Shown: in pieces, positions 3,664 through 58,672 of the stretch
Position numbering within the stretch: the stretch's first letter is position 1
Layout: every line of letters starts with the position of its first letter
NCBI GenBank assembly: GCA_041691135.1
Contig: JBEPVF010000007.1
Location: 13,377-77,376 of the forward strand
Length of the DNA: 64,000 nucleotides
Direction of reading: 5' to 3'
Source: Candidatus Peribacteria bacterium
GTDB taxonomy: Bacteria > Patescibacteriota > Gracilibacteria > Peribacterales > Peribacteraceae
The notes under the pieces: model-generated
Seen by the model: only the letters and a program-made list of their open reading frames with translations
Databases searched by the model: none
Told to the model about the DNA's origin: nothing
Made by a program: the position numbers and the translations under genes

Positions 3664-5001
3664 ATGCAAGATATCACGTACCGCTCCGACAAATTTTTCG
3701 AAGAGACCGGCGATCATCCCGATCGTCATGTGCATATTATTCTGATTGCCACGAAGCCGGATATCATTAAGCAGGTGCCGCTCTATAAAGAACTGAAGAA
3801 GCGGGGCCATTTGGTGCTCCTTGGGCATACCGGGCAGCACTACGACGAGAACTTATCGGGCGGAATGCTCAAGGAATTCGGCGTCGAACCGGATTTCAAT
3901 TTGAATGTGCGCGGTGCGATGCATGAAGTGGTGAGCCAGATCATCGGACGGCTGGGACATGTGATCGACGAACTGAAGAAACGCGACAAGATCGTGATCC
4001 CATACGTGCATGGCGATACGACCACGGCGATGGCCGCATCGAATGCGGGATACTGTCATATGTTTGGATCGGTGCATGTGGAGGCAGGCATTCGCACGCT
4101 CACGCCGAAATATGGTGATGAAGCGCACCATGCGTGGGACAGCGAAGAGGCTTTCGATGTGAGCCACTGGTACAACTTTTTGCAGAAGGAAGAGAACTGG
4201 GAACGTGGCAGCCAGGAGCCGTTTCCGGAGCAGTTCAACACGCGTGCCAGCGAGGCGGCGACGGGGGTGCATCTGGCGCCGCACGAACTCGACCGGCATT
4301 TTTTGGAGAGTGAGGGCTACGCATCGGATCGGATTTTCGTCGTCGGCAATTCGGTTGCTGATGCAACGTTGGAAGCCGTGGCGAATTCTGGAAGTACCAA
4401 GATTTTCCAGGAATATCCGCTGCTCAAGACCGGTAACTTTGTGCGTTTCTGCATCCATCGACGCGAAAACTGTTTATCCGAGCTGCGCTTCCGTTCGATC
4501 TACGATGCGATGGTCGGTTTGGTACGTGACGGCAAAAGCGTCCTGCTCATTTCGATGTTTCAAACCGAACAAGCGCTCGATCGGTTTGGCATGCGCGAGG
4601 AAGTCGAGCGATTGCAGAATGAGTTTCCAAACTTCATCTACTCGCCGGTATGGTCGCAGTACACCGATGTGATCGCCGCTATGAGCAAGGCATCTGTCTG
4701 TGCCACCGATAGCGGATCGATGCAGGAGGAGATGAATATTCTCGGCGTGCCGTGCGTCACGCTCCGTTTCGGTTCCGACCGCAGCGAGTCCATCATGAAC
4801 GGCGGCAATATCATCGCACCGCCCGTCAGCTCCTCGCTCATCCGCTCAGTGATCGACTTCGCCTGGGACAATGAATATATGCGGCGGCGTCCCAAAATCT
4901 ATGGCGAGAATGTGAGTGCTAAATGTATCGATGCGGTGGTGAAAGTATTGGCAGAAGGGGAGGTGTTTCGGAGTGAAGAGGAGAGATTGGGATTGCGGTA
5001 G
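3664..5001 (+). CDS. wecB: UDP-N-acetylglucosamine 2-epimerase
   Basis: TKPDIIK, HTGQHYD, VHGDTTT, HVEAGIRT, PFPEQFN, HRREN and TDSGSMQEE motifs. Confidence 0.92.
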   Translation: MQDITYRSDKFFEETGDHPDRHVHIILIATKPDIIKQVPLYKELKKRGHLVLLGHTGQHYDENLSGGMLKEFGVEPDFNLNVRGAMHEVVSQIIGRLGHVIDELKKRDKIVIPYVHGDTTTAMAASNAGYCHMFGSVHVEAGIRTLTPKYGDEAHHAWDSEEAFDVSHWYNFLQKEENWERGSQEPFPEQFNTRASEAATGVHLAPHELDRHFLESEGYASDRIFVVGNSVADATLEAVANSGSTKIFQEYPLLKTGNFVRFCIHRRENCLSELRFRSIYDAMVGLVRDGKSVLLISMFQTEQALDRFGMREEVERLQNEFPNFIYSPVWSQYTDVIAAMSKASVCATDSGSMQEEMNILGVPCVTLRFGSDRSESIMNGGNIIAPPVSSSLIRSVIDFAWDNEYMRRRPKIYGENVSAKCIDAVVKVLAEGEVFRSEEERLGLR

Positions 5002-5051
5002 GCTTTCACCTTTACCTTGGGAGCGGATCTGTCACCCTTCACCCTCACCCG

Positions 5052-5327
5052 CAGCAGCAGCCGTCCCCGGCTGCGGTGTCTGAACTATTCTCCTACACGA
5101 ACAGTATCAGTCACCACTGGTGTTCTTTTTCTTGTCTCCCCGCGACAAGAAAAAGAACCAAAAAGAAGCGCACCGCCTATGACCCACCTCATGTCGATGG
5201 AGCGCCTATGGCTTGCTCCATCGACATTCGTACCCACTCATCCCCACCACATAGGCGGAGGGGGTCATTGTCTGGAATAGCGAGCAGGCGAAGAGGTTGG
5301 GCGGCCTCTAGCCGCCTGGGAGTAGTG
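5052..5327. repeat. structured dispersed repeat, family 1, copy A
   Basis: Core 5119-5327 shared with 23496-23738 and with the copy ending at 27535; 5' module CAGCAGCAGCCGTCCCCGGCTGCGGTGTCTGA shared with copy B; multiple hairpins. Confidence 0.92.
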
Positions 5328-5360
5328 GAGACAGCTTCATTAAACAGTACACAAATACAT

Positions 5361-5524
5361 CTCCCTCTCCCGGCAGGTTTCTGATGTTCCATGACGAACA
5401 GACGCTCACTACTTCCTTTGCGGTATGGGAAGGAGGGAGAGGGCCGGGGTGAGGGAGCACCCGCCAACGATGAATCGACCAGCTTCCACCGACCGCGTAG
5501 AAAGCGGCAGCGCCCTGCTGAAAA
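5361..5524. repeat. REP-like hairpin (CCCTCTCCC...GGGAGAGGG) plus flanking arm motif
   Basis: CTCCCTCTCCC at 5361 pairs with GGGAGAGGG near 5436, followed by CCGGGGTGAGGG; 5468-5524 resembles 20817-20874. Confidence 0.65.
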
Positions 5525-5648
5525 ATATCATCAAGCTCTTGATTCCCCTGCATCCTCTTCCTCTGTCCCCTCTGCCACCTCGGTCACTTCGGTCACCTCT
5601 CTCTTAAGACCCCGTGCCTCCTGCCTCTCAATCAGCTAGCATTGCTCT

Positions 5649-7768: not shown

Positions 7769-9592
7769 ATGGAGGCGCCCATTCATCCTCGCAGTATCGT
7801 CATTCTCGATTTTGGGGGCCAGTATGCTCATCTGATAGCCCGACGCGTACGGCAGTGCGGGGCATATTCGGAGATTCTGCCACCCGAGACGTCGGCTGAC
7901 AGATTGAAGGACGCTGCCGGAATCATTCTGTCTGGCGGGCCGCAGAGTGTGTACGACGCCGGGAGTCCAAAGGCGGATCCGAAGATCCTGGAGCTTGGTA
8001 TTCCTGTTCTTGGCCTGTGTTATGGCCTGCATTGGATGACACAAGCTTTGGGCGGACAAGTGAAAGGCGGCAACGTGAAGGAGTATGGCAAGACGCGTAT
8101 TATCATCGAAAACGGTGGGGGCGCGCTGCTCCAGGATTGCGGTGACAGCTGTACGGTGTGGATGTCGCACGGTGACGAGGCGGCGAGGTTGCCCGATGGA
8201 TTCACGCTTATCGCAAGCTCCGAGACATGCAAGCATGCGGCATTCTCGGACGAAGACCGACGCCTGTTCGCGCTGCAATTTCATCCCGAGGTCACGCACA
8301 GCGAACACGGTTTCGATATGCTTCGTCGCTTCGTCGCGTTGTGCGATGCGGCACCTTGGGCGATCGAGAACTATACGGGCTACGTCGGTGAGCAGGTGAA
8401 GCAAGAAGTCAGCAATAGAAAAGTCTTTATGCTTGTGTCCGGCGGAGTTGATTCGACAGTAGCATTCACGCTGCTCAATCAAGTGCTGGGGAAAGATCGT
8501 GTGCAGGGATTGCTCGTGGACACGGGCCTGATGCGCAAGAACGAAGTGGCATTGATCAAAAATGCATTCGATCATCTGGGCATCGATAACTTGCACGTGG
8601 TCGATGAGTCCGAGACATTCTTCGAAAAATTGAAGGGAGTCTACGAACCGGAGCAGAAGCGAAAAATCATCGGCGACACCTTCCTCGATGTGCAGAAGCG
8701 TGTGAGCGAAGAGATGGATCTGCGCGTGGAAGACGGATGGATGCTCGGACAGGGAACCATCTATCCCGACACGATCGAAACTGGCGGAACCAAACATGCG
8801 GACAAGATCAAGACACATCACAACCGTGTCGATGCGATTCAGCAGATGATCGAGAAGGGACTCGTGATCGAGCCGCTCAAGGAACTCTACAAAGACGAAG
8901 TGCGAGCGCTGGGCGAAGAATTAGGTCTGCCGCACGATCTGGTGTGGCGTCATCCATTCCCGGGACCGGGGTTGGGGGTCAGAATTCTTTGTGCCGAGCA
9001 GTCATCGCCTTTGTCGTGGGAGCAGGCAGTGCCGAATGGAGCGCAGCTGACTGACTTCATCCAAAGCGGCGTGATCCTTCCGGTCAAATCAGTGGGCGTG
9101 CAGGGTGATGGGCGCACCTACCGTCATGCGGTCGCATATTTCACAGATGATCTGCGACAAATCCATGATGTGCATGTGCTCGCCACGATGGTGCCCAATG
9201 CCGTACCGACGCTGAATCGTGTTCTCCTGTGTATAGATCCTGATAAGAAGCCGAAAAAGTTTACGTTCACTCCTGGTTACCTCACGCGCGCGCGAGCCGA
9301 TCTGCTACGCGAGGCCGATGCGATTGTGGATGACGAGATGCGGAGGGCCGAGCTGTACAAAGAGATTTGGCAGTTCCCGGTCGTTCTCTTGCCAGTCGGT
9401 GTACAAGACGGTGGTCAGTCCATTGTGCTGCGTCCCATTACGTCCATCGATGCGATGTCGGCGGACGCCAAGTTGTTGCCCGATGATGTTCTGCGGACGA
9501 TCAACGATCGGATCCTGGCCGAAGTGCCGGGGATCGATGCGGTATTTTTGGATCTGACGAACAAACCGCCGGGCACGATAGAATGGGAATGA
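7769..9592 (+). CDS. guaA: GMP synthase (glutamine-hydrolysing)
   Basis: ILDFGGQY, GLCYG, QFHPEV, SGGVDS, IKTHHN, RHPFPGPGL and C-terminal KPPGTIEWE motifs. Confidence 0.97.
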   Translation: MEAPIHPRSIVILDFGGQYAHLIARRVRQCGAYSEILPPETSADRLKDAAGIILSGGPQSVYDAGSPKADPKILELGIPVLGLCYGLHWMTQALGGQVKGGNVKEYGKTRIIIENGGGALLQDCGDSCTVWMSHGDEAARLPDGFTLIASSETCKHAAFSDEDRRLFALQFHPEVTHSEHGFDMLRRFVALCDAAPWAIENYTGYVGEQVKQEVSNRKVFMLVSGGVDSTVAFTLLNQVLGKDRVQGLLVDTGLMRKNEVALIKNAFDHLGIDNLHVVDESETFFEKLKGVYEPEQKRKIIGDTFLDVQKRVSEEMDLRVEDGWMLGQGTIYPDTIETGGTKHADKIKTHHNRVDAIQQMIEKGLVIEPLKELYKDEVRALGEELGLPHDLVWRHPFPGPGLGVRILCAEQSSPLSWEQAVPNGAQLTDFIQSGVILPVKSVGVQGDGRTYRHAVAYFTDDLRQIHDVHVLATMVPNAVPTLNRVLLCIDPDKKPKKFTFTPGYLTRARADLLREADAIVDDEMRRAELYKEIWQFPVVLLPVGVQDGGQSIVLRPITSIDAMSADAKLLPDDVLRTINDRILAEVPGIDAVFLDLTNKPPGTIEWE

Positions 9593-9596
9593 GGTC

Positions 9597-9780
9597 ACCC
9601 CATCCGCGCTGCGGGGCACCTTCCCCGGCCCTCCCATACGCCAACACGGGGAAGGGCGAGAGAACAAAACAGAAACATTCCCTTCCCCGTGAAAGCCTCT
9701 GAAGATGTGTCATTTAGAAAAAAAGTCTGATTTTCTCAGAACAAGAATGGAGGAGGCGGGGGAAGGGCTAGGGATGGGGT
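9597..9780. mobile_element. 184-bp MITE/REPIN-like element, family 2, copy 1
   Basis: Ends ACCCCATC...GATGGGGT; reverse complement of 20622-20805 with two differences by my alignment. Confidence 0.85.
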
Positions 9781-9816
9781 GCTTCCACTGGCCAACTAGT
9801 CTAGAATCAAACTCTC

Positions 9817-10401
9817 ATGGCGAATTCGTCTCTTGAGGAATCCGAGATTCAGCGGCTGGTCGTACAGGCGCAGGGTGGAGACACCGAGGCGTTCGGCCGT
9901 GTGTACGATCACTACTTTACTGCCGTGTATCGGTACACTGCGTTCCGGTCTCCGGCCGAGATGGCGGAGGATCTGGTGGCGGACATCTTCGTGAAAGCGT
10001 GGGAGAAGCTGCATCAGTACAAACCGCAAAAAGACGTGTCCTTCGGGGCTTGGATTTTCCGTATCGCACGCCACACGGTGATTGATGCCTATCGTACACA
10101 TCGGGCGTTTGAAGAAGTATCCGAGGATATCGTCGATCCAGATCAGTTTAACAGGGCTGATACGCGCATTAATAGTAAGGAACTTTTACAGACAGTTCGT
10201 CAAGCAGTAAGCCAGCTCCCCAAACGCTACCGGGAGGTGATTCTATTGTGCTTCGTCGCCGATCTACCCCATAGCGAAGTGGCCAGGGTGCTCAAAACCA
10301 GCGAAGGAAACGTCCGTACGCTCAAATTACGGGCTCTCCAGAAGCTCGAAACCCTTCTCCCCCGCGATGTGCACGAAAAACCGCCGTCTTACCCCTCCTA
10401 A
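9817..10401 (+). CDS. ECF sigma-70 factor
   Basis: GDTEAFGRVYDHY, AEDLVADIFVKAW, WIFRIARHTVID; region 4 HSEVARVLKTSEGNVR. Confidence 0.92.
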   Translation: MANSSLEESEIQRLVVQAQGGDTEAFGRVYDHYFTAVYRYTAFRSPAEMAEDLVADIFVKAWEKLHQYKPQKDVSFGAWIFRIARHTVIDAYRTHRAFEEVSEDIVDPDQFNRADTRINSKELLQTVRQAVSQLPKRYREVILLCFVADLPHSEVARVLKTSEGNVRTLKLRALQKLETLLPRDVHEKPPSYPS

Positions 10402-10440
10402 ATTGTAACAGCATGCCATTTTCTTCGTTATCTGCAGTGC

Positions 10441-12315
10441 ATGGATCGTAAGCGAATACCCTCTGGCAAGCCGTTTGAATCCTCTTTGGAGGGACATCTG
10501 CACCAGGTGCAGCAGCATCTCGATCCTCATCAGAGTGTGAAACAGAAAATTCATAGCCGTATTCAACAACGTATTCAGGAGCCGGCTGTTTTTGAGGATG
10601 TCCGCCGCGTTCTCTCGCCGAACGCAGCAACGAAGCTGCGTGTATGGCAGCGCGCGTGGGGTCGCATTGCGCCACTGGGCGATCTGAGTCTGTGGGATCG
10701 ATTGCGGGCACTTCTTTCACCACAGCATTCGGTGCAGGAAGCCTTGCGCGGTCGCGTCATGAATCGCCTGCAGCCGACGCCCGTCTACGTGTATTCGTCG
10801 CATCCCATCAAATGGGTGGCGGCTTTCGTTCTCGTGGCGTTGGTCACCACGACGGTTGCACCGTTCCTCGTTGCACCCCGTACGATTGCCGACTCACAAG
10901 TGCTCGTGCAGGGGCAGGTGTTCCTGCTCATGGATGGTAATCTCTGGCAACCGATGCAGACCGAATTCCCGCTGACCAAGAGCGCGTTCCTGCAAACAGG
11001 CAAGAATTCCGCCAAGATCATTCTGTACGACGATGCGGTGTTTCGTATGGCGCCCAATACGACAATCGCATTGCATGATTTAACAGACCGTCCGGCAATA
11101 CCGACCTATCCGACAACTCTCACCGTCTATAAGGGCAAAGTTTGGGCGCAGGGTTTTGTGGCAGATGGCGAAAGTCCGCTGACAATCGCGGTAGGTGATG
11201 AGACGGTTACGCTCAACGAAGGCAGCGTCTCCATCGACGAAACCGGTCGTGTGCAGGTGTGGAACCGTCGTGCGACGATTGCGCAGGCTGATCAGCAGTT
11301 GAACCTGCTCGCCGGAGAAGAAACGCATGCCGTGAAGAACAGTCCGCTCATCGCCCAGAAGATACCGTCGAACGATTACGACACGCCGTGGGTTACCAAG
11401 AACCTGGCATTCGATGCGGTGCACCAGCGCGAGATCGCGCAAATCCAGCAGGAGCGTCTGGCCGCGGCGGCGGGAATCCTACCCACCAGTCCTTTTTACG
11501 TCGTCAAACGTGCAGCCGAAGCAGTGGATCGCGCGTTTACCTTCACGCCGGAGCAGAAAACCAAGAAGATCCTGGCGCAGGCCAATACGCGATTGAAGGA
11601 AGCGGCGGCTTTGATCGTGGATGGAAGTTCGGATGTCTCCGCACCGCTTGCCGAGTACCGTGCAGCCGTGTTATCGGTAGCCAGCGGATCAACCGTAACG
11701 CAGTCGCTGGTTCAGGAAGACATCACCAATACGACGGCAGACTTATCGGCCGCACTGCCCAATGATGCCGGTTACCAGCTTAAAGAAACGGTGCTCGGGA
11801 CAGCGGCCGCACTGCCGAACAGTTCGATCAATGTTCAAGATGTGCTGCTCGCCGACAAACTGATGGCCGTGAAGCAGACGGTGGAGGAAGGCAAAGATGT
11901 GCAGCCGAATGTACTCAGCGATCTGGCACCGAATCTCGGCAACCAGGACAGTGCTTCACCTGAGCTGCAGGAAGCTGCAGCCTCGCTCTCGGTAGCGCAG
12001 AACGCCTTCGAGAATGTCGATGGCTTGGCCGGCACCGGTGCATCGAAAGACATGAAGAGCGTACGTCCATCGCATGCTCCCACGAGTCCAATCGCCGCCG
12101 ATATTCCTGCGGCAGTGGGCATGTTACTTGGAAGGATGAATACGTATCACTTGTCCGCTTCCATTACGGCGCAGGCTGTCACAGAAGTACGTAACCTCCA
12201 GGGAAATCCTGATCGCGATGCCATTATCCGCGAGGCGATCCGCCAGCTGGATGCACCGTACAATACGGCTTTGGCACATGCGTTGCAGAAAGCGAAGGGG
12301 AAGGGGCAGTGGTAA
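10441..12315 (+). CDS. membrane-anchored FecR-like + DUF5667-like protein, putative anti-sigma factor
   Basis: One TM helix, then a beta-rich FecR-like region (LQTGKNSAKIILYDDAVFRMAPNT) and AGILPTSPFYVVKRAAE (DUF5667-like); directly downstream of the ECF sigma gene. Confidence 0.72.
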   Translation: MDRKRIPSGKPFESSLEGHLHQVQQHLDPHQSVKQKIHSRIQQRIQEPAVFEDVRRVLSPNAATKLRVWQRAWGRIAPLGDLSLWDRLRALLSPQHSVQEALRGRVMNRLQPTPVYVYSSHPIKWVAAFVLVALVTTTVAPFLVAPRTIADSQVLVQGQVFLLMDGNLWQPMQTEFPLTKSAFLQTGKNSAKIILYDDAVFRMAPNTTIALHDLTDRPAIPTYPTTLTVYKGKVWAQGFVADGESPLTIAVGDETVTLNEGSVSIDETGRVQVWNRRATIAQADQQLNLLAGEETHAVKNSPLIAQKIPSNDYDTPWVTKNLAFDAVHQREIAQIQQERLAAAAGILPTSPFYVVKRAAEAVDRAFTFTPEQKTKKILAQANTRLKEAAALIVDGSSDVSAPLAEYRAAVLSVASGSTVTQSLVQEDITNTTADLSAALPNDAGYQLKETVLGTAAALPNSSINVQDVLLADKLMAVKQTVEEGKDVQPNVLSDLAPNLGNQDSASPELQEAAASLSVAQNAFENVDGLAGTGASKDMKSVRPSHAPTSPIAADIPAAVGMLLGRMNTYHLSASITAQAVTEVRNLQGNPDRDAIIREAIRQLDAPYNTALAHALQKAKGKGQW

Positions 12316-12501
12316 TAGACAGGATCGTGCAGTGGTTATCCTTCTTCAAGAGAAGCCGACGGCTGAAGGAGAGGATTATGAGGATTTTTTCACGATGATT
12401 TGAAATTGTAATTGTCGCTTCTATCGGTTCCCTCGACGCCGCCGGTTTCCTCTTCGTTGAAGTATTGACTAGCCTCCGGTCCCCCTGCACACTTTGCTCC
12501 C

Positions 12502-13065
12502 ATGTATACCATTACGGATCTCAAGCCCGGCCGCGCCATCAATATCGATGGCGAACCGTACCTCATTCTCAGCTCGCAGTTCGGCCGCAAAAGCCAGAGC
12601 AAGGCGAACATGCAGACCAAGCTGAAGAACCTGAAGACAGGCGCCATCGTCGCCAGGAACTTCCAGGGATCCGAAAAGATCGAGCCGGCCGATGTGGGCT
12701 ACCGCAAGGTGCAGTACCTCTACAACGACGGTTCCAATTACACGTTCATGGATCTGCAGACCTACGATCAGTACGAGTTATCGGCTGAGGTGATGGAAGA
12801 GACGGGCGGTTATCTGGTGGATGGTCAGGAAGTGGATGCGCTCATGTTCCAGGACAATCCTATCGGTATCAATGTGCCGTCTACTGTCACCTTGGTAGTC
12901 AAAGAGACGATCCCTGGCGTGAAGGGCGACACGGCCACCGGCGGTTCCAAACCGGCCACGCTGGAAACAGGCATGACGGTGAACGTTCCACTCTTCATCA
13001 ACGAAGGCGATAAAGTGAAAGTGAATACCGAGACGGGGGAGTATATGGAGCGAGTGAATTCTTAA
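12502..13065 (+). CDS. efp: translation elongation factor P
   Basis: QYLYNDG, PGVKGDTATGGSKPATLETG, VPLFINEGD and TGEYMER motifs. Confidence 0.97.
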   Translation: MYTITDLKPGRAINIDGEPYLILSSQFGRKSQSKANMQTKLKNLKTGAIVARNFQGSEKIEPADVGYRKVQYLYNDGSNYTFMDLQTYDQYELSAEVMEETGGYLVDGQEVDALMFQDNPIGINVPSTVTLVVKETIPGVKGDTATGGSKPATLETGMTVNVPLFINEGDKVKVNTETGEYMERVNS

Positions 13066-13071
13066 CTAGTT

Positions 13072-13359
13072 ATGCCAAGGGAAACCATAAGAGACTTCTT
13101 TGATTTTGGCGACGAGAATCCGCCGCCTCTTCGATCCTTGCGCGAAGAGCTCGGTCTGCCCGAGCCGGAGAATGTACCTGGCGGCCCTACTGTTTCAGAA
13201 GATTTATTGTTGAGCCTTATCCGAAAACAGCTTAGCCGAGAGTTGGCAGTAGTTCTGTACAGCTTGATTGAAAAATATATAGCCTGGAGGAAGGCCCATA
13301 TTCGATTGCTTCTTGAAGAAGCAGGACGAAGCGTGGCCAATCAAACAGAATCAAACTGA
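13072..13359 (+). CDS. hypothetical protein
   Basis: 95-aa ORF starting 7 nt after efp and filling the efp-gatB gap. Confidence 0.6.
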   Translation: MPRETIRDFFDFGDENPPPLRSLREELGLPEPENVPGGPTVSEDLLLSLIRKQLSRELAVVLYSLIEKYIAWRKAHIRLLLEEAGRSVANQTESN

Positions 13360-20523: not shown

Positions 20524-20621
20524 ATTGTGCATGCATACAGTAATTCTGTTTTAGCATTTGGGGCGCTGCTGCTTTCTGCGCGGTGGGTAGCCAGAAGCAT
20601 ATTCAGCATGAGTTTTGCCGT

Positions 20622-20805
20622 ACCCCATCCCTAGCCCTTCCCCCGCCTCCTCCATTCTTGTTCTGAGAAAATCAGACTTTTTTTCTAAATGACACATCTT
20701 CAGAGGCTTTCACGGGGAAGGGAATGTTTCTGTTTTGTTCTCTCGCCCTTCCCCGTGTTGGCGTATGGGAGGGCCGGGGAAGGTGCCCCGCAGGGCAGAT
20801 GGGGT
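20622..20805. mobile_element. 184-bp MITE/REPIN-like element, family 2, copy 2 (inverted)
   Basis: Near-exact reverse complement of 9597-9780. Confidence 0.85.
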
Positions 20806-20905
20806 ACACAAGCTGACGATGAATCGGATACCCAGGAACTCACCGCACAGAAAGCGACAGCGCCAATCTGAAAATTCAGAAGAGCACACGGCTATCAATC
20901 ATGAT

Positions 20906-23359: not shown

Positions 23360-23371
23360 CTTTTCCTCGCC

Positions 23372-23738
23372 CAGCAGCAGCCGTCCCCGGCTGCGGTGTC
23401 TGATTGTTAATCAAACACATTCTTCACACGCAGAGCGCCGTAACTCGGCGCGGTGCTGAGGTGTTTGCCTGCACAAAATTTTTTCAATCGCTCAGGGTGT
23501 TCTTTTTCTTGTCTCCCCGCGACAAGAAAAAGAACCAAAAAGAAGCGCATCCGACTTCGCCTGCGGGCTACGCCGGACAGGCCGCCTCTATGACCCACCT
23601 CACTTCCTTGTCGCGCCTAACGGTTTGCGACAAGGAAGTTCGTACCCACCTATCCCCACCACATAGGCGGAGGGACTGTTCCCTGGAATAGCGAACGTGC
23701 GAAGAGGTTAGGCGGCCTTTAGCCGCCTGGGTGTAGTG
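23372..23738. repeat. structured dispersed repeat, family 1, copy B (longest; carries a ~32-bp nested insert)
   Basis: Contains all modules seen in copies A and C. Confidence 0.92.
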
Positions 23739-23830
23739 AAGGGGGTCCTCGGATTCATCGGCGCCCTCGGCACCGTCGGATTCCTCATTAACAAACCCTC
23801 TTCCACTCTGCTACCATCCCCTGAAAAACC

Positions 23831-26759: not shown

Positions 26760-27266
26760 GTGATCCTCTCGTTGGTGTTAGCGGCATCGGAAAACAACGT
26801 GATTGGCGACAGCCAGGCAGCGAACCATGCTATTCCGTGGCATCTGCCGAACGACTTCAAACATTTTCGTGATCTCACCAAGGGTAAGCCGGTGATCGTG
26901 GGACGCAAGACGATGGAGAAGATTGGACGATTACTTCCAGGGCGGCGAAACATCGTGATCACCCGCGGCGATGCAGTGCCGTTCGAAGGAGCGGAGCGCG
27001 CAGGTTCATTAGAGGAGGCAATCGAGTTGGCCAAGCAGGGGAACCCCGAAGAGATCTGTGTGATTGGTGGCGGCGAAATTTACCGTCAGGCGCTGTCGAT
27101 TGCGGATCGGGTGTATCTGACACGGGTGCATGCGACAGTGGAGGGTGATACGACTTTTCCGGGGTTAGATGATGCGTGGAAGGAAGTTTCTCGCGAAATG
27201 CATAGTGCCGATGAGGAGCACAAGTATGCGTATACGTTTTTGGTGTTCGAAAAAAGAGAAAAGTAG
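26760..27266 (+). CDS. folA: dihydrofolate reductase
   Basis: NNVIG, IPWHLPNDFKHF, GRKT, LPGRRNIV, IGGGEIY and GDTTFP motifs. Confidence 0.96.
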   Translation: MILSLVLAASENNVIGDSQAANHAIPWHLPNDFKHFRDLTKGKPVIVGRKTMEKIGRLLPGRRNIVITRGDAVPFEGAERAGSLEEAIELAKQGNPEEICVIGGGEIYRQALSIADRVYLTRVHATVEGDTTFPGLDDAWKEVSREMHSADEEHKYAYTFLVFEKREK

Positions 27267-27535
27267 AGCGCCGTCTCTCGGCGCGGCTCTGAGGTCTTGG
27301 CCTGCACAAACTTTTCCAATCGCTCAGGGTGTTCTTTTTCTTGTCTCCCCGCGACAAGAAAAAGAACCAAAAAGAAGCGCACCGCCTATGACCCACCTCG
27401 CCCTGCTGTCGCGCCTGTGGGCTGGCGACAGCAGGGCTTGTAACCACTCATCCCCACCACATAGTCGGAGGGGTGTTTGCCTGGAATACCGAACGTGCGA
27501 AGAAGTTAGGCGGCTGTAGCCGCCTGGGAGTAGTG
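27265..27535. repeat. structured dispersed repeat, family 1, copy C
   Basis: Begins at the folA stop codon; shares the AGAGCGCCG...CTCAG module with copy B and the core with A and B. Confidence 0.92.
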
Positions 27536-27693
27536 AATGGGTCCTCGGATTCCTCGGCGCCGTCGGTTCCCTCGGGTTTCTCCTACTTCAAAATAGTCGA
27601 CTTTCTCTCTTGAATTAGAGGGAAAGCGAAATTTTTCTGTCATCGAAGGTCCTTTTACTTTTCTTCCAGATTTTCACTTCTATTATTGTTGCC

Positions 27694-48739: not shown

Positions 48740-49072
48740 ATGCTCCATCCCGATCCTACCGTTCCCCTCACTCCCGCCGTCTTTCATATCCTTTTGGCAT
48801 TGCTGCCGTGTGAACGGCATGGATATGACATTATGCAGCAGGTGAAAACGGACTCTGAAGACACCGTGACCATGGGGCCGGGTACACTCTATGGCTCTAT
48901 TGACCGCATGATTGATGCGGAATTGGTGGAAGTGACACCTCATCGTCCCGAACATCGGCGAAGGATCTATTACAAGCTCACACAAAAAGGAAGGTCTACG
49001 CTGAACGCGGAAATACAGCGCCTTGAGAACGCCGTACACGTCGCTCGTAAACGCAATACCCAGCCCGCTTAG
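48740..49072 (+). CDS. PadR-family transcriptional regulator
   Basis: FHILLAL, HGYDIM, GPGTLYGSI and RRIYYKLTQKG motifs. Confidence 0.93.
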   Translation: MLHPDPTVPLTPAVFHILLALLPCERHGYDIMQQVKTDSEDTVTMGPGTLYGSIDRMIDAELVEVTPHRPEHRRRIYYKLTQKGRSTLNAEIQRLENAVHVARKRNTQPA

Positions 49073-49074
49073 TT

Positions 49075-49551
49075 ATGGAACACATCGGGAACTCCATCGG
49101 CTTTTCGCACCGACTGTACATATTATTGCTCCGGCTGTATCCGAGTTCGTACCGTAAGCGACACGGTGACGAGATGATTCAGATATTTGAAGACCTGGAA
49201 CGGGAAAACGACTCTTCAGTTGCCCTGTGGCTCTTTCTTTTGAAAGACCTTTGTATCAGCTTACCTCTTCAATATATGGAATATTTTAAGCGCTCTAAAA
49301 AACTCCAATTATCCATTCCGGCCGTGCTCATAGCCATATTAGGGTTAGGATCGTATCAGGTGCTTACGCTTAATAAAGCTCATAGTACATTCACCAACTA
49401 TGCCGCTTTTCGAGGGTGTACGCAGATAGTCAGCCGTAATACGACATCGGGAACGTGTAAAACAGCCGATGGCAACACGGTGAATATCGTAAATTTTAAA
49501 GACAAATGGTATCTGGCTGGCGACTTGCCATGTGGTTTTCTATGTTTTTAA
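49075..49551 (+). CDS. PadR-associated membrane protein
   Basis: LLRLYPSSYRKRHGDEM motif typical of genes following PadR; one TM helix. Confidence 0.72.
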   Translation: MEHIGNSIGFSHRLYILLLRLYPSSYRKRHGDEMIQIFEDLERENDSSVALWLFLLKDLCISLPLQYMEYFKRSKKLQLSIPAVLIAILGLGSYQVLTLNKAHSTFTNYAAFRGCTQIVSRNTTSGTCKTADGNTVNIVNFKDKWYLAGDLPCGFLCF

Positions 49552-49595
49552 GTTAACTAATGGGAGTCTGCGGCAATGGTATATCTCTGAATCCA

Positions 49596-50039
49596 TCACA
49601 CGTCAGCAGCCGGTTTCGATGCGACCAATCCTGCCGCGCTCATCAACTGCATAAGGTCGTTCGGATTGGCATAGAAGCAAATCACGGGCTTGTCTTTCAT
49701 AGAAAGGATATAGGTTGCTTGCTGGCGTACTTCAACGGGTTTCCTATCTTTGTGAAACAGCATCGTGACCTGCGCTTTCACAAGGGTATAAAAATCATCC
49801 AAGGCTACTTCCTCCACCGGTACTGTTTCTGAAGACTGTAAACCGAATGTATTGAACATCTCTTTTTGCTTTGTGACGGCAGCTGCGAAGTGCTCTTTTT
49901 TGATGACCTGTGTCCCTTTCGCATTGGCATACAGGAAACTCTCTGTGAACTCCGACAGAATGACTGGCAGGTCCAAGGCATTGCTGGCACGTGTGAACTC
50001 TGTAAAAAATTTCTGGACTGCGGGAGTGATGCTAATCAT
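49596..50039 (-). CDS. NTF2/SnoaL-like protein
   Basis: 147 aa with alpha-then-beta pattern (FF..F..A...LD...; FLYANAKG). Confidence 0.6.
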   Translation of the reverse strand: MISITPAVQKFFTEFTRASNALDLPVILSEFTESFLYANAKGTQVIKKEHFAAAVTKQKEMFNTFGLQSSETVPVEEVALDDFYTLVKAQVTMLFHKDRKPVEVRQQATYILSMKDKPVICFYANPNDLMQLMSAAGLVASKPAADV

Positions 50040-50240
50040 AGTGTTATGATATATCCGAAATATAATAATTTGTACACTCCATCGATATCACAATCGGTAG
50101 TGGATAGAGCGGCTGCTTTCTTACACGTTTCGTTTGCATAAATTGCAGAGTACAGTTGGGAATTATGAACCTTACGGCAACTGGACACTCGCCATTTTCT
50201 CACTTTGCAAGGCTGTTTATGAAAAATCCACACTAGCAAC

Positions 50241-50669
50241 ATGAAAAATATTTCACGAATCCTGTTTTGCATCATCATTGCTAACTATCTGGCTCAGATT
50301 GTTTATGCACAGCACGTCTATCATAACGTAATAGGGAAAAATCTGAGTGGCTTGCTTTTATTGGGTGCCACATTTTTCCTGTTCATTATTCCCTATTTTC
50401 TTCTTCAAAAAGGCATACGAGGCGGGTATGTCGGCATGATCTTCTTCTTGAGCGCCGAATTTTTGTTCTACTTCATGAATCTTATTTTTTCAATGATTCA
50501 CGGCTATCCGCCGTTCTTCCAATTGGCAAATCCTGACCGGATTCTTTTCATGGTTTTCCTCATTGGCTATATCAATCTTTTTGCTTCTGCTTATTATCTC
50601 TATTACCTGCTCAAAAATAGAAAAAAATGGAAAGCCCTGATGAAGCTGGGTAATGAGTCTCTTGTCTAA
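50241..50669 (+). CDS. four-TM hypothetical membrane protein (AT-rich)
   Basis: Four hydrophobic helices. Confidence 0.65.
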   Translation: MKNISRILFCIIIANYLAQIVYAQHVYHNVIGKNLSGLLLLGATFFLFIIPYFLLQKGIRGGYVGMIFFLSAEFLFYFMNLIFSMIHGYPPFFQLANPDRILFMVFLIGYINLFASAYYLYYLLKNRKKWKALMKLGNESLV

Positions 50670-50863
50670 TTATGCTCTGCATTTGCAATATGACGGTTCA
50701 TCGATTTTCAGGAATACAATTTATTCCTCCTCCTCTTCTGATTTCTGCACCACAAACTTCTTATTCATATATTTACTGAACTTTTGAGCTCCTTGCCTAT
50801 TTGCATTATCAAATATGACATACATGGACAACGTCGTCTCAGAGGTGCCTACTGATTGATGAT

Positions 50864-53800
50864 TTAGCGATGAGCAATGGGCAGAGAGAGCATGAAAGTG
50901 CTGCCGCTGCCTTTTCCCTCCTTCGAGACAAAAGAAATTTTCCCGCCCAGCAAATTGGTAAGAAGAGAGACCAGATAGAGACCTAGCCCCGTGCCGTCCG
51001 TGTCCTTGTCTACCACATTATCTCCGCGAAAAAACTTCTTGAAGATCTTTTTCTGCTGGTGGGCGGGAATGCCATAGCCGAAGTCCTGGACTGCTATCGT
51101 CAGCCCTTCCTTTTGTTTCTTTACGCGTATGACAATCTTGCCCTTTTCCGGAGAGTACTTCCGGGCATTGCTCAGCAGGTTTTTGATAATTTCTTTGAGA
51201 AATGCAGGATCGGTATGAATGGAGATTCTAGGAGGACAAACCAATGACACGGATTGCTCTTTGATGTCAGATTCCTTTTCTTCTGTGAACACTTTTTTCA
51301 GGAATGAACGCAAAGCGATTTTTGATAGTGTCATTTTCATCTCGTCTGACTCGATACGCGCGATGTGGAGCATTGTATCGATTGTTGCGGACATACGCTT
51401 TGCCGCATCCTTGCCCTCTTCCGCAAGCTTCCTATCCTCCGCATCACTTCCCTTTGTGGCCATATTTTTACTGAGCCGACCCATTCCCCAGCGCATGGCA
51501 GTGAGGGGCGTGCGCAATTGATGGCTGGCGAGCGACATAAATTCTGATTTTACTATGTCAATGCGACGCTCTCGGCTGATATCCCTGTACAGGAGCAAAT
51601 GTCCCGCCTGTGCTCCAGCATGAAAAACAGGAGCATAGTCGCAGAGCAGCACGCGACCGTCTTTTAGGAGTACTTCCTGTCCCAGAAGCGGGGTTGTCAT
51701 ATGCCATATTTCTTCAAGCTTCTTTTCATAGGCTTTCGGATCGATCACCTGCTTCAAGAGCACGTCGATAATGTCCGGCAACCGAAGCTCTTTGTCGCTG
51801 TAGTGTGCGTGATCCAGATTGAACAGCAGGCAGAGCTGTTCATTGACGTGCAACGTGCCCTGTTTGGCAGAGACAGCGAGTCCGGCCATGGGAATATTCG
51901 ACAGCATGTCTTTCATGATTTGCAGATGCGTTCGTTCCTCCTTTTCCTCTTTCTCGGTGACATCTTCGAAGGCCAGTAAAATGAGCCGTTCGCTGCTTTT
52001 ATCCAGCGGATCAATGGTACATGCGTTGAGGAGCATCGATTTTCGGCCAATAGAGGGAAATGTATGCTCCACCCTAAAATCATCGAATTGCGTATTCTGG
52101 GGAATAATATGCTCAAGAAGCTGCCGGAGTTCGGGGATATTCCACTGACCGTTGCCCAGATCGTAGATGAGCCGTCCGATTGTCTTTTCTTCGTTCGTTT
52201 TAAAGGCGCGATAAAACGTTCTATTGGCAGTCTGCACTCTCAATTCACTATCAAGAACGATCAGCGACTCGCGCACCGTTTTAAAAATCGCTTCTTTATA
52301 ATCTTTGGAAAATGTCAGTGCGCGGTTGAGCTCCGTCATTTCGATATTGCGGTTCTGCAGTTCGTCATTGACGGTGCTTAATTCCTCGTTGGTGGATTGC
52401 AGTTCTTCTTTTGAGGTTTCCAATTCTTCATTCGTGCTCTGGAATTCCTCATTGCTGGAGAGTGCTTCCTCATTTGCCGCCTGGAGTTCGTCGGTTGCCA
52501 TCTCGTGATCATGAATGACCGTTTGCACGTACTCACGCGCGAGTGCGAGTTCTTGCTCCAGTTGAATGATCAGCTTGTCGCCAGCCGAAATTTTTTCCTT
52601 GTTCTTGCCCTCCGGGGTGCCTTTCACAGCAGGAAGGAGTCCGCTATGGAACAGAATAAGAAAGCAGCGGGGTTCAGAGGACGTATCGAGGGGCAATATT
52701 TCAAAAGAAACATGCTCATCGTCAGCAATGCGAATACGTTCACTGCGTAGCGGCTCATTGTTTTTAAGCACGGTCTTTATGGCCGAATGGAGTTCTACCA
52801 ATAAACTCTCGCGTACCATCTTCAGCAGATTCAAACTGGCTTTTCCCACGGCTGGTTTCAGATACGGACTCGTATCGCCTCGGAATTCCAAAATTTCCAT
52901 ATCCTCATTGATGATCACTCCGGCGAGCGCGAAGCGGGCGAGAGTGGCCCTGTCCGCCTTTTCACCAAAGGACAGAGCGGACGCCGCGCTCTCCCGATCG
53001 AGTTGGCGTATCGCCAGACGTGATGGAATTTTGCCATCGGGCTGAGGAGTCGAGAACTTTCGGTGTACCCGGCTCGGCGCGACTTTACGGGAATAGATCT
53101 TCGCTTTTTTCTCTATCAAACCCAGAAGATCAGCGCACGATCCAACGGTCTCGGATTTACCAAGCATGAGGTATCCTTTTGGCTTCAGTGCATAGTGAAA
53201 TGTGGAGAGCACCTTTTTCTGCAGTTCCGGGGTAAAGTAAATGAGCAAATTACGGCAGGAGATGAAATCCAATTGGGAGAACGGCGGATCTTGGGCGACA
53301 TTTTGCTTGGCGAACACACAGAGGTCGCGGATTTCTTTGTTGATCTGGTATGTGTCACCCACTTTGGTAAAGAACTTTTTCAGACGCACGGGTGAAACAT
53401 CGAGAGCGATATTTTCGACGTAGATTCCTGCCCTCGCTTTTTCCAGAACCGGCTCGCTGATATCCGATGCAAATATTTGTATAGGGAATCCGGCGGCACG
53501 TTTTCCCATGTATTCTTTTAGACAAATGGCCAGAGAATAGGCTTCCTGCCCCGTGGAACAGCCGGGTACCCAGATACGCAGAGGGGCAGTTGCAGGGCGA
53601 TTTTTGAGGAGAAGCGGGAATACTTCTTTTTTCAGAGTTTCAAAGGCCTCCGCATCGCGGAAGAAACTCGTCACCGGGATCAGGAACTCCTGAGACAAGG
53701 CTTTCACTTCTTCCGGTTTTTTTCGCAGGAACGTCACATATTCGCTCATTTTTTTCATGCCATGCAGCGCAAGCCGCCGCTCAATGCGCCGCTGCAATGT

Positions 53801-54718
53801 CGAGTGCTTATATTGGCTGAAATCAATGCCGGTGCCGGTGCGCACCAGGCGGAAAATCTCTTCCAGGCCCGGATCCTTTTCGGGGAGTATCGCGGCCTGT
53901 GGCTGCACTATAGGTACCGCAAGCAAACGGGGCGCAAGGAGCGAAAGCTCGCGGGCGATCTTCTCGGGGGGAAGCACGAAATCCATATGGCCGGCGACGG
54001 CGGCACTGCGCGGCATGTCGCTGAATTTGGCTGAGGATTCGTCCTGGGCAAAGGTAATGCCGCCTTCGCTCTTGATCTCTTCCATGGCCAGCGTGCCATC
54101 CGATCCTGTTCCGGAAAGAATCACGCCAATGGCCATATTTTTCCGTTCACGCGCGAGGGAACGGAGAAAATAATCGATGGGCATATGCAATCCCTTCGTC
54201 GCTGAACGTGGCATCAATTTCAATTTCCCACGCCTTGTCGCCATATTGGTATTGGGAGGGATCACATACACGCGGTTCGCTTTGATACGCGTGCCGTTCT
54301 TCACGGTCTCCACCGACATGGCAGTTGCTTTCGACAGGATTTGCGTGAGCATGCTCTGGTGCGTCGGATCAAGGTGCTGCACTAAGACAAACGCCATACC
54401 CGTATCGACGGGCAGATGCTTGAGCAGGCGTATGAACGCGTCCAGTCCTCCCGCCGAAGCACCGATGCCGACAATGGGGATGTGCCGTGAGACCTTCCGG
54501 GAAATGCTCCGTGCAGGCTGGCCCTGCGCACGGGCAACCCGGACTTTGGCCGGGTTCTTTTGAAATCGAACTCCGGCTGCATGTGCTGGTGAAGCCTTCC
54601 CGGACCGTCTCCGCCGCTCACCGTGTGCCATCCCACGGATTTTTGAAGACAGGACGGATTCCACAGTCACTCCTTTCTGATCGGCAGCTTGCCGATGGTC
54701 CTTTTGTATGGGCTTCAT
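50864..54718 (-). CDS. CheB methylesterase-CheR methyltransferase-PAS-histidine kinase fusion
   Basis: CheB triad GASAGG/VQHL/SGTGSDG; CheR RIWVPGCSTGQEAYS and ISCRNLLIY; EELQSTNEEL coiled coil; PAS domains; SHQLRTPL, NLLSNARKY and GTGLGL. Start uncertain. Confidence 0.93.
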   Translation of the reverse strand: MKPIQKDHRQAADQKGVTVESVLSSKIRGMAHGERRRRSGKASPAHAAGVRFQKNPAKVRVARAQGQPARSISRKVSRHIPIVGIGASAGGLDAFIRLLKHLPVDTGMAFVLVQHLDPTHQSMLTQILSKATAMSVETVKNGTRIKANRVYVIPPNTNMATRRGKLKLMPRSATKGLHMPIDYFLRSLARERKNMAIGVILSGTGSDGTLAMEEIKSEGGITFAQDESSAKFSDMPRSAAVAGHMDFVLPPEKIARELSLLAPRLLAVPIVQPQAAILPEKDPGLEEIFRLVRTGTGIDFSQYKHSTLQRRIERRLALHGMKKMSEYVTFLRKKPEEVKALSQEFLIPVTSFFRDAEAFETLKKEVFPLLLKNRPATAPLRIWVPGCSTGQEAYSLAICLKEYMGKRAAGFPIQIFASDISEPVLEKARAGIYVENIALDVSPVRLKKFFTKVGDTYQINKEIRDLCVFAKQNVAQDPPFSQLDFISCRNLLIYFTPELQKKVLSTFHYALKPKGYLMLGKSETVGSCADLLGLIEKKAKIYSRKVAPSRVHRKFSTPQPDGKIPSRLAIRQLDRESAASALSFGEKADRATLARFALAGVIINEDMEILEFRGDTSPYLKPAVGKASLNLLKMVRESLLVELHSAIKTVLKNNEPLRSERIRIADDEHVSFEILPLDTSSEPRCFLILFHSGLLPAVKGTPEGKNKEKISAGDKLIIQLEQELALAREYVQTVIHDHEMATDELQAANEEALSSNEEFQSTNEELETSKEELQSTNEELSTVNDELQNRNIEMTELNRALTFSKDYKEAIFKTVRESLIVLDSELRVQTANRTFYRAFKTNEEKTIGRLIYDLGNGQWNIPELRQLLEHIIPQNTQFDDFRVEHTFPSIGRKSMLLNACTIDPLDKSSERLILLAFEDVTEKEEKEERTHLQIMKDMLSNIPMAGLAVSAKQGTLHVNEQLCLLFNLDHAHYSDKELRLPDIIDVLLKQVIDPKAYEKKLEEIWHMTTPLLGQEVLLKDGRVLLCDYAPVFHAGAQAGHLLLYRDISRERRIDIVKSEFMSLASHQLRTPLTAMRWGMGRLSKNMATKGSDAEDRKLAEEGKDAAKRMSATIDTMLHIARIESDEMKMTLSKIALRSFLKKVFTEEKESDIKEQSVSLVCPPRISIHTDPAFLKEIIKNLLSNARKYSPEKGKIVIRVKKQKEGLTIAVQDFGYGIPAHQQKKIFKKFFRGDNVVDKDTDGTGLGLYLVSLLTNLLGGKISFVSKEGKGSGSTFMLSLPIAHR

Positions 54719-54930
54719 GTGACTTGCAATCCTACACCTACTATTGCTTTTCGCATAATAGGTGAGGCGTGGAATGCGATCTTGAAAAAGGGAGAGGCAA
54801 GGTATGCCAGATGGCCTGTATGAAACACTTTTCGGCAAGGACAAGCGGTAAGCTCTGTTGCCCCTCAATCGTCATCACTATTGGCGTCACTCTTGCTCTT
54901 CGACCTCCACCCCCTTTCGCTCCTCTTTAG

Positions 54931-55201
54931 CCGCGGCAGCGTAAACCGCGGGGGCTCTGCCCCTTCGTAGTTAAGGCATTCAGGAACATGGCGGCTGCCG
55001 TGATCTTTCAATTGCTCGGCGTTGCCATCTTCGCCATCGGACTCAGTCGGTATCCGGCTTCCATCATTCTCGCCCATCTCTTCGACGTATCCGTTCGTGA
55101 CGATCTTGCTTGCCGTCGCGGTACTGAAAGAACGACCCCGCTGGCAGCAGTACCTTGGTGCGGGACTTATTCTTGGCGGCTTGGTGGTCTTGGCACTCTA
55201 A
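54931..55201 (+). pseudogene. EamA/DMT transporter C-terminal fragment with frameshift
   Basis: AAVIFQLLGVAIFAIGLSRYPASIIL in one frame continues as SSTYPFVTILLAVAVLKERPRWQQYLGAGLILGGLVVLAL* in another; shift near 55070-55080. Confidence 0.75.
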
Positions 55202-55398
55202 GAACAGGATCAGACAGATGGCCTTTTGCGAAGCACATAGAAAGGTGCTGCAATTTTAATTGCCGGATAACCGGAGACGCACCGGCCTTGAAAAGAACAC
55301 CGAGGATGAATTGCAATCGGTGAAGATTAGAAGCCGTTTTTCGGAGATGGAAGATATTCATCGAGAAAGGGAAGAATGAATGCGGTTATTTGCTTGGA

Positions 55399-55671
55399 TC
55401 AGGTCCGATCTTTAAAAAATGCCTCCGCTTCCTTCTCCATCTTCGCGAGGCGGGTGTAGTAGTCCGGGTACTCACGCAGATGAGCAAGGGCGATCTTGCC
55501 TGTCATGAGAGGATCATTATTCGTCACGTTCGTTTGCGGGTCATGCGCTCCGTGCTCTATCTCGACATTGATTCCCATAAGGAACTGCTCAATATCGAAT
55601 GGAGCAGTATTCTCGGAAATTCCGATTTTTTTAGCGATCTCTTGTGCTTGCTCCAGAGTGAATTGATGCAT
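55399..55671 (-). CDS. DUF5661-like small protein
   Basis: EQFLMGINVEIEHG...KIALAHLREYPDYYTRL. Confidence 0.8.
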   Translation of the reverse strand: MHQFTLEQAQEIAKKIGISENTAPFDIEQFLMGINVEIEHGAHDPQTNVTNNDPLMTGKIALAHLREYPDYYTRLAKMEKEAEAFFKDRT

Positions 55672-55716
55672 CGAATAATGAGGAATGAAGATAAAAAAGG
55701 TAAAAAGTCTGAGAGT

Positions 55717-57963: not shown

Positions 57964-57990
57964 GGCTATGCGAGGAAAAAAATGAAAGCC

Positions 57991-58281: not shown

Positions 58282-58336
58282 AGAAGGAGGAGGAGGAAGA
58301 TGAAAAATAATAATATGGAATCAAGCCTATTCCCTC

Positions 58337-58558: not shown

Positions 58559-58646
58559 GCAAGAGCAAGGAAAGGGTGGGGAGGCTGCCCGTATTTTTGC
58601 CCACTTGAGGAGCATGCTTCGTTGAATTCTGAGGTTGTATTTCTTT

Positions 58647-58672
58647 AAAAAAGAAGGGGCCCGAAGGCCCCT
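58647..58672 (-). terminator. intrinsic terminator
   Basis: Minus strand AGGGGCC-TTCG-GGCCCCT-TCTTTTTT. Confidence 0.85.

Follow-up and report, generated by a model that had tools for sequence, protein, structure and literature searches.

The 64,000-nt window analysed here, from a Candidatus Peribacteria bacterium (assembly GCA_041691135.1, contig JBEPVF010000007.1, positions 13,377 to 77,376), is part of contig C7 of a 1.74-Mb genome that comprises 35 contigs and is an estimated 92% complete. It carries three copies, hereafter A, B and C, of a structured repeat, and we propose, with a probability of roughly one half, that these are copies of a DNA-level, non-autonomous mosaic repeat that would fold as single-stranded DNA (ssDNA) on the lagging-strand template. 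The orientation of the repeat tracks replication and not the neighbouring genes. In this genus, the repeat is fused at its 5' side to repetitive extragenic palindromes (REPs) of the type associated with REP-associated tyrosine transposases (RAYTs). We infer mobility as ssDNA, a role for the RAYTs in this genus, and a mechanism that copies one hairpin arm from the other.

The core repeat and its copies

A scan with covariance model R1, which was built from 23 aligned copies, yields three copies in the window and no more; they lie on the + strand, at the places given by the initial annotation. From 5' to 3', the core consists of a hairpin (P1), an A-rich linker, a stem (P2) that encloses a further stem (P3), a 3' domain, a terminal hairpin, and the tetranucleotide GTAG. 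P1 is a 15-bp hairpin at the core start, with a pyrimidine-rich 5' arm and a purine-rich 3' arm. P2 is a 9-bp GC stem (CCGCCTATG/CATAGGCGG) with two unpaired C-rich strands inside it, and between these strands lies P3, which in copies A, B, and C is a 13-bp perfect inverted repeat with a conserved GCC/GGC apex and a loop of 11-12 nt that begins with GCCT. The 3' domain closes with a GGCGGC/GCCGCC hairpin, and GTAG follows. The 15-bp stem, the enclosing stem, the terminal hairpin, and the exact 13-bp repeats with their loops can all be read from the sequence as initially described. The anatomy of the core therefore stands, but the extent assigned to the element does not, as the real element is longer and more modular, with REP hairpins 5' of the core and two alternative tails 3' of it. 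The modules lie at the following positions of the window:

5051..5076, + strand: copy A, REP hairpin of type R1 (stem 5057-5063/5068-5074, loop TCCC; read from the sequence), with a degenerate tetranucleotide, GCAG in place of GTAG
5077..5118, + strand: copy A, linker between REP and core (from an alignment of 24 copies)
5119..5330, + strand: copy A, core, 212 nt (model R1, 248.9 bits)
5122-5136/5144-5158, + strand: copy A, P1 (read from the sequence)
5159-5172, + strand: copy A, A-rich linker (read from the sequence)
5173-5181/5250-5258, + strand: copy A, P2 (read from the sequence)
5191-5203/5215-5227, + strand: copy A, variable stem P3, with the apical GCC/GGC at 5204-5206/5210-5212
5300-5305/5311-5316, + strand: copy A, terminal hairpin, with GTAG at 5322-5325
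5331..5470, + strand: copy A, 3' tail belonging to a second repeat family (BLAST of the tail against the genome)
23371..23396, + strand: copy B, REP hairpin of type R1, with a degenerate tetranucleotide, CCAG
23430..23453, + strand: copy B, second REP hairpin, of type R2 (stem 23435-23440/23446-23451)
23496..23741, + strand: copy B, core (model R1, 234.8 bits)
about 23550-23583, + strand: copy B, extra hairpin of about 34 nt inserted before P2
23602-23614/23627-23639, + strand: copy B, P3, the commonest allele (9 copies)
23742..23795, + strand: copy B, TCGG-periodic tail (period about 9 nt)
27263..27286, + strand: copy C, REP hairpin of type R2 (stem 27268-27273/27279-27284), with a canonical GTAG at 27263-27266
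27328..27538, + strand: copy C, core (model R1, 252.1 bits)
27400-27412/27425-27437, + strand: copy C, P3, the second commonest allele (7 copies)
27539..27590, + strand: copy C, TCGG-periodic tail

The linker between REP and core is common to all copies in the alignment of 24, in which it occurs as two variants. Genome-wide, there are about 26-30 copies. A profile search (nhmmer) returned 31 matches at 30 loci on 14 contigs; 22 of these loci are full length, six are cut by contig ends, and two are internally deleted or fragmentary. Many contig ends fall within copies. The summed contig depth of the source run is 520-560 over the core and 18-19 in unique flanks, a ratio that agrees with roughly 27-30 copies. 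The source-run contigs that reach copy A are interrupted at the repeat; a single low-depth joint passes over 5179-5239 and may be another copy that lacks the stem.

The initial annotation held that P3 is rewritten in every copy and is always perfectly paired, and at the scale of the genome neither statement holds. Only five alleles occur, carried by 9, 7, 2, 2, and 1 copies, with A, B, and C carrying the three commonest, and pairing is perfect at 19 of the 26 scorable loci. The imperfect stems include two copies of one allele that share a single C.C mismatch, one copy with two mismatches and one with three (all A.C), an arm-chimeric copy at a contig end (C23) whose left arm comes from one allele and whose right arm comes from another, one truncated hairpin, and one deleted stem. 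A sixth allele, again perfectly paired, is present in one congener. Between any two alleles, 5-6 of the 13 positions are different, and the flanks differ by about 5-15%. P3 is one of several cassette-like variable blocks, the others being a P1 variant, the 34-nt insertion (found in 6 of 23 aligned rows, namely copy B and five others), and blocks of the 3' domain, and the combinations vary between copies. For the region between P2 and the terminal hairpin, which comprises several allelic blocks, no scheme of helices was found that fits all alleles.

Folded as DNA, the core of copy A has z-scores of -6.5 (+ strand) and -6.6 (- strand), and 0/200 shuffles were as stable. The two strands fold alike, so folding energy gives no choice between them. 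The possibility that the core encodes a protein was rejected, since overlapping open reading frames (ORFs) on either strand differ between copies and the stem loops vary by 1 nt.

The A-rich linker (5159-5168) repeats, directly or as a mirror image, the last 7-8 nt of the P1 3' arm (5150-5158). This relation is also seen in other genomes, and both segments change together from genome to genome. The linker could therefore pair with the P1 5' arm as an alternative structure. A purine-motif triplex of the linker with P1 was discarded because it seems sterically unlikely, and the alternative pairing with the 5' arm would explain the covariation equally well.

Covariation, orientation, and distribution

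When 79 distinct family copies were aligned to the model structure, a procedure that favours pairing, standard pairs filled 97.7% of cells, compared to 74.8% in shuffles (0/500 as high) and 47-59% in slid controls, and 41 of the 46 pairs changed on both sides. An ungapped, model-free count of P1 gave 1133 Watson-Crick pairs, 1 G.T, 0 A.C, and 6 others, mostly at helix ends. For P3, this genome and its congener together gave 298 Watson-Crick pairs, 0 G.T, 3 A.C, and 4 others. These counts indicate that changes jump from one Watson-Crick pair to another with near-zero wobble intermediates. Wobble pairs make up about 1% of the element's helices versus 9% (as G.U) of the tRNA helices of the same genome, obtained with the same folding approach. 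The initial annotation had taken the many paired changes to mean either that selection acts on a folded single strand or that one arm is copied from the other; the double-sided changes support this general inference, and the nearly pure Watson-Crick pairing favours a process at the DNA level. As judged from these alignments, covariation without wobble favours arm-to-arm copying or a strict requirement for a DNA hairpin over the way in which an RNA helix usually evolves. In REP doublets forming hairpins (REPINs), the spacer hairpins are reported to undergo compensatory changes commonly (PMC3116915), and homogenisation of inverted-repeat arms by template switching has been described in the literature.

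Copies on any one contig share the same strand. Of the 30 loci, 26 have the strand that agrees with local GC skew, including all 20 at which |skew| is 0.03 or more; scored in this way, agreement is 612/1171 for ORFs of at least 150 aa and 22/50 for tRNAs. Seven other genomes of the family were compared with the skew of the 20 kb around each copy, and 40 of their 46 copies agree with it (26/29 where |skew| is at least 0.02); three genomes with few, minimal copies fit poorly (2/4, 2/3, and 2/3). GC skew marks the origin and terminus in Peribacteria (PMC4736985). Since the top strand agrees with the skew, it belongs to the G-rich strand. That strand is the template for lagging-strand synthesis, on which Y1 transposases act (PMC6006769). 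The orientation of neighbouring genes has no comparable relation to that of the repeat: copies between tandem genes are co-oriented in 8 cases and anti-oriented in 7 in this genome (crude ORF calls, some of them doubtful), and among 28 family loci, 15 of which lie between convergent genes, the corresponding numbers are 6 and 4.

By BLAST, the full core is confined to this genome and one congener (G004, two contigs titled Candidatus Peribacteria). Exact-pattern scans of genome and metagenome collections likewise gave the two G004 contigs as real, and the other 18 loci were chance matches that lack the core. Model R1 was run on 101 genomes sampled from the same family, and 55 of them contain relatives (1-23 matches per genome, 80-275 nt long). 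In a class-level scan, the model matched 13 of 15 genomes of this family versus a single weak match among 135 genomes of 33 other families.

Throughout the family, the plan is P1, with the pyrimidine arm always 5', an A-rich linker whose changes go together with those of the P1 3' arm, a short GCGCAC-like motif, and P2. The sequence of P2 varies by genome and the C-rich strands inside it are conserved. Minimal forms have nothing in the middle of the P2 loop, this genus has a simple hairpin there (the variable domain, of 13+3 bp), and other genera have a three-way junction; the helices of this junction vary between copies within one genome, and its loops and junction strands are fixed. In genomes where no REPs adjoin the repeat, unique DNA starts exactly at the foot of P1 and about 8 nt past P2.

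Presence and absence of the repeat differ among close relatives. Two members of one genus, for example, have 16 matches and 1 match. Downstream of the dihydrofolate reductase (DHFR) gene, there are a REP and a core here and only a REP doublet in two congeners, and the site downstream of the TrmB gene contains a core in two of four congeners. Genome G107 lacks the element at two sites orthologous to G014, but the intergenic DNA is just 67-71% identical, so neither the ends of the element nor its target can be defined from this pair.

REP hairpins, RAYT genes, and the nature of the repeat

The genome encodes four Y1-type HUH proteins, of which three are RAYTs (C1, C11, and C5) and one is an IS200-like TnpA (C8). 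The RAYTs score 86.3, 96.9, and 93.3 bits, respectively, against NCBIfam REP_Tyr_transpos (equivalog cut-off, 80 bits), and HxH and Y motifs are visible in all three translations. The C1 protein, the sole one searched, matches E. coli TnpA-REP (PDB 4er8). Each of the three genes sits between an inverted pair of GC-rich hairpins of the same type preceded by GTAG, type R1 around the C1 gene and type R2 around the C11 gene, and an inverted REP pair around a RAYT gene is the published REPtron arrangement (PMC6006769). The same source defines a REP as GT[AG]G located 0-2 nt 5' of a GC-rich hairpin with a 7-20-bp stem and a 2-5-nt loop. Hairpin R1 (GTAG, 2 nt, 7-bp stem, 4-nt loop) falls within this definition; R2 (GTAG, 1 nt, 6-bp stem, 5-nt loop) has a stem one pair below the published minimum. 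The modules that the initial annotation recorded as 'CAGCAGCAGCCG...' and 'AGAGCGCCG...' are hairpins identical to those that flank the RAYT genes, and the 5' modules of the element are canonical REP hairpins of the resident RAYTs.

Among 16 good R1 hairpins, two flank the RAYT gene, 11 lie on the same strand 45-125 nt 5' of a core, and three are at contig ends. As REPs in this genome hardly occur apart from cores, the repeated unit here is one or more REPs, the linker, and the core. REPs beside cores are single and co-oriented and do not form inverted doublets. The 212-nt core itself is neither a REP nor a REPIN by the published definition, with no GTAG located 5' of P1, P2, or P3 in copies A to C. 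This family has an unusually large number of RAYT genes (matches in 71 of the 101 genomes, up to 12 matches per genome, three intact genes here), the usual number being one per REP type (PMC6006769). The best-ranked literature matches contain no description of REPs or RAYTs in the candidate phyla radiation (CPR), and the taxon tables of PMC6006769 may already include CPR RAYTs.

Compared with known systems, the closest likeness of the 5' part is to the REPs, bacterial interspersed mosaic elements (BIMEs), and REPINs of E. coli and Pseudomonas with their RAYTs. Shared features are GTAG 0-2 nt before a 6-7-bp GC-rich hairpin with a 4-5-nt loop, REP types that each flank their own RAYT gene, an extragenic location enriched between convergent genes, mosaic clusters, and hairpin segments that vary and remain paired. 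In contrast, the core has no GTAG guide before its hairpins and is present in genomes without a Y1 transposase, and REPs here are single and in one orientation, in a family with up to 12 RAYT matches per genome. With the palindrome-associated transposable elements (PATEs) derived from IS200/IS605, the repeat shares hairpins at or near both ends, the absence of inverted terminal repeats and target duplication, a top strand on the lagging-strand template, and a 3' boundary about 8 nt past the last hairpin. It differs in that the left hairpin starts at the very boundary rather than in a subterminal position, no tetranucleotide for cleavage or guiding was recognised, and several copy-bearing genomes have neither TnpA nor TnpB; this genome encodes one IS200-like TnpA (C8) and no TnpB, and five other copy-bearing genomes lack Y1_Tnp. 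The geometry used for this comparison is that of IS608.

Other modular, structured intergenic repeats include BOX of pneumococci, ERIC/IRU and RU of enterobacteria, Correia elements of Neisseria, and RPE of Rickettsia. The present element resembles these in size (100-300 nt), copy number, structure, variable combinations of modules, intergenic location, and lack of a transposase of its own, and has no known similarity to them in sequence. None of them is known to combine a replication-strand orientation with a wobble-free, cassette-like variable stem. Like the attC sites of integrons, the element would fold as ssDNA, has a central stem of variable sequence and length that stays paired between conserved flanks, and has an orientation that matters with respect to replication. 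Unlike attC sites, its copies are single, are dispersed over 14 contigs beside housekeeping genes, and form no cassette arrays, and its P1 arms (GTTCTTT...) deviate from the R-box consensus GTTRRRY. An attC identity was rejected on the basis of this dispersal, with no search made for the integron integrase intI. A classical miniature inverted-repeat transposable element was likewise rejected, as the flanks of 18 copies, read by eye, show neither terminal inverted repeats nor duplication.

Taken as a mobile DNA repeat, the element could be explained as follows. P1, the A-rich linker, and P2 with its enclosed C-rich strands form an old, discrete unit, and the P2 loop can host a variable domain. 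The REP hairpins would be the recognition sites of the three resident RAYT single-strand DNA transposases, and exposure of the top strand as ssDNA at the fork would couple insertion or maintenance to replication. P3 would then be a variable arm in which only pairing matters, with its five alleles reassorting among copies by recombination with other blocks, and the complementarity of its arms would be kept by hairpin-templated correction (template switching), by selection for a Watson-Crick ssDNA hairpin, or by both. Of the candidates put forward in the initial annotation, a non-autonomous element mobilised as single-stranded nucleic acid fits best, because of the 5' REPs of resident RAYTs and the replication-strand orientation.

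Several observations weigh against this interpretation. The alignment that yields the family-wide pairing was guided by the model. The 18 copies whose flanks were inspected come from three genomes and show no terminal inverted repeats or target-site duplications, and, although presence and absence can be seen among relatives, a comparison of congeners and of source-run contigs revealed no nucleotide-exact empty site of the kind that the initial annotation suggested looking for. Additionally, the core and RAYTs co-occur no more often than chance would give among the 101 family genomes (both in 38, core only in 17, RAYT only in 33, neither in 13), and no enzyme is tied to the core. A Y1_Tnp match is absent from five genomes that carry 5-13 copies each, and a reverse transcriptase (RT) is missing from three of these as well. 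The C-rich single-stranded motifs and the sequence and polarity of P1 are kept across genera whose proteins are 51-71% identical, which looks, from sequence comparison, like a sequence-specific function rather than selfish spread alone. Lastly, the orientation bias could stem from selection, for instance against a single-stranded, G-rich complement.

The foremost alternative, though an unlikely one, is a family-specific structured noncoding RNA (ncRNA), either a multi-copy small RNA or a cis-acting mRNA element, whose C-rich loops (CCUCC-like, resembling an anti-Shine-Dalgarno sequence) would bind G-rich targets or a protein and whose helices, including P3, would be mere scaffolding. Such an RNA would account for an architecture kept with massive covariation over 55 of 101 family genomes, for single-stranded motifs that are better conserved than helices, and for a variable central domain that resembles RNA expansion segments. 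Some copies are co-oriented inside operons, for example between thyA and folA in two genera, and the top strand, co-directional with replication, would be transcribed in the sense direction. The scarcity of wobble pairs relative to the genome's own tRNAs is difficult to accommodate in an RNA, as is an orientation independent of neighbouring genes. Moreover, tRNA genes are not co-oriented with replication (22/50), and selection on the direction of transcription therefore explains an 86% bias only weakly. Nor were signals of transcription found: a scan that covered copies A and C but not B gave no sigma-70-like promoter beside them, no canonical terminator on their + strand, and just a weak 5-bp pattern on the - strand, and in other genera P1 is not preceded by any conserved sequence. 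An intrinsic terminator was itself rejected as an identity, as the + strand of A and C has no U-tract hairpin and the orientation is independent of the neighbours. Rfam gave 0 matches at the gathering threshold over the whole window, and 6 sub-threshold matches (E up to 10) over 4900-5600, to unrelated families of which four are eukaryotic. The core thus matches no described Rfam family. The only sequencing run found to contain the stretch is the probable source, a DNA metagenome.

Somewhat less probable again is an ssDNA element that serves the host on the lagging-strand template, such as a priming or primosome-assembly signal akin to the single-strand origins of rolling-circle plasmids, or a landing site for a protein, with its orientation kept by function rather than by its mode of insertion. 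The family-wide orientation bias that is independent of known transposases, the strictly Watson-Crick helices expected of DNA hairpins, the preservation of P1 sequence and polarity and of loop motifs across genera, and the discreteness of a unit without transposon hallmarks all fit such a role. However, close relatives can have as few as 0-2 or as many as 16-30 copies, and the model matches nothing in 46 of the 101 family genomes, which is hard to square with a core replication function. Furthermore, 1-30 copies per genome are too few for general lagging-strand priming, and one closed genome has just 2 of its 4 copies in agreement with the local skew.

A guide-type RNA (bridge-RNA, omega-RNA, or retron-like), in which the variable stem would program a nuclease, recombinase, or RT, recalls the initial annotation's other candidate and is suggested by a variable segment within an invariant scaffold and by one RT and one IS200-like gene elsewhere in the genome, but it is very improbable and already largely refuted: the segment has only five alleles and is fully self-paired, and so is not free to pair with a target; the genome has no TnpB or IS110 DEDD domain, Rfam gives no match of the omega-RNA or HEARO type, no promoter (A, C) or terminator was seen, the only clear RT of the genome (on C8) adjoins no copy, and no nuclease, RT, recombinase, or HUH, IS110 or other transposase recurs in the 101 ORFs adjoining 29 family loci, where the initial annotation had suggested that one might be found and where the neighbours are housekeeping genes. 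IS110 bridge RNAs and TnpB/IscB omega-RNAs were rejected on these grounds.

REPs such as those in the 5' part of the element have been described before. What appears to be undescribed is the core family, together with the replication-linked orientation of its copies, the lack of a tie to known transposases, and covariation without wobble: no such repeats in Peribacteria or CPR bacteria are present among the best-ranked literature matches, nor in the excerpts of the Peribacteria genome paper (PMC4736985). A bolder proposal, which we consider doubtful, is that P1-linker-P2 represents an unrecognised class of folded ssDNA in one CPR family, read on the lagging-strand template by machinery that is neither Y1/HUH nor RT. 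If true, it would be a new replication-coupled mobile DNA or a host fork signal, its helices would be kept Watson-Crick by arm-to-arm copying, and the RAYT/REP system would have hitch-hiked secondarily in this genus. The element would provide a sequence-level handle on replication-coupled ssDNA processes in uncultivable organisms, and the genome places REP/RAYT systems, with several RAYT genes per genome, in a CPR lineage. It also calls for caution in RNA discovery, as DNA-level palindromic repeats can yield very strong covariation; the absence of wobble and a replication-linked orientation are simple marks that may separate such repeats from RNA.

Neighbouring genes, tails, and other repeats

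The plus-strand genes 5' of copies A, B, and C, initially named wecB, trmB-like, and folA, do encode a UDP-GlcNAc 2-epimerase, a TrmB-family protein, and a DHFR, respectively. The TrmB-family neighbour of copy B is a transcriptional regulator and not a tRNA methyltransferase. The stop codon (TAG) of the DHFR gene falls within the GTAG (27263-27266) of the R2 REP of copy C, and the C-terminal residues of this DHFR are unlike those of the congeners' enzymes.

Cores are often followed by one of two tail modules. The first, with CTCCCTCTCCC / GGGAGAGGG arms, has about 15-20 copies and comes after many cores, but is also found by itself and pointing either way (for instance, at C2:257887-258082 and C12:22868-23050, among others). 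The second is a low-complexity sequence with TCGG every 9 nt that follows several cores, including B and C. Congeners carry analogous ATCGCT-rich tails in the same place. In addition, a hairpin module, …CCTGAGC…GTCGAAGG…, recurs upstream of elements and is kept across genera in three genomes (this genome, G000, e.g. L071 and L079; G004, L025; and G087, L134-L137). It is a further member of the modular repeat repertoire of the family.

Repeat islands sum to about 32.5 kb of the 1.74-Mb genome and break the assembly. CPR bacteria are thought of as streamlined, and islands on this scale stand against that picture. Two islands of other repeat families lie within the window, at 9590-9780 and 20619-20864, with up to 12 matching segments elsewhere in a self-comparison of the genome. 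On C8, an RT gene (10387-11010, 80 bits; L005) adjoins the IS200-like Y1 transposase gene (12924-13289, 120 bits; L001), and three repeats of about 118 bp lie just upstream of the RT gene (7989-8106, 9111-9227, and 9645-9762). This locus (about 7989-13289) may be a diversity-generating retroelement or another retroelement. Finally, contig C9 of this genome, outside the window, contains, at 49052-60591, an array of about 11 repeats of 410-790 bp each with strongly negative GC skew, which is probably a repetitive gene.

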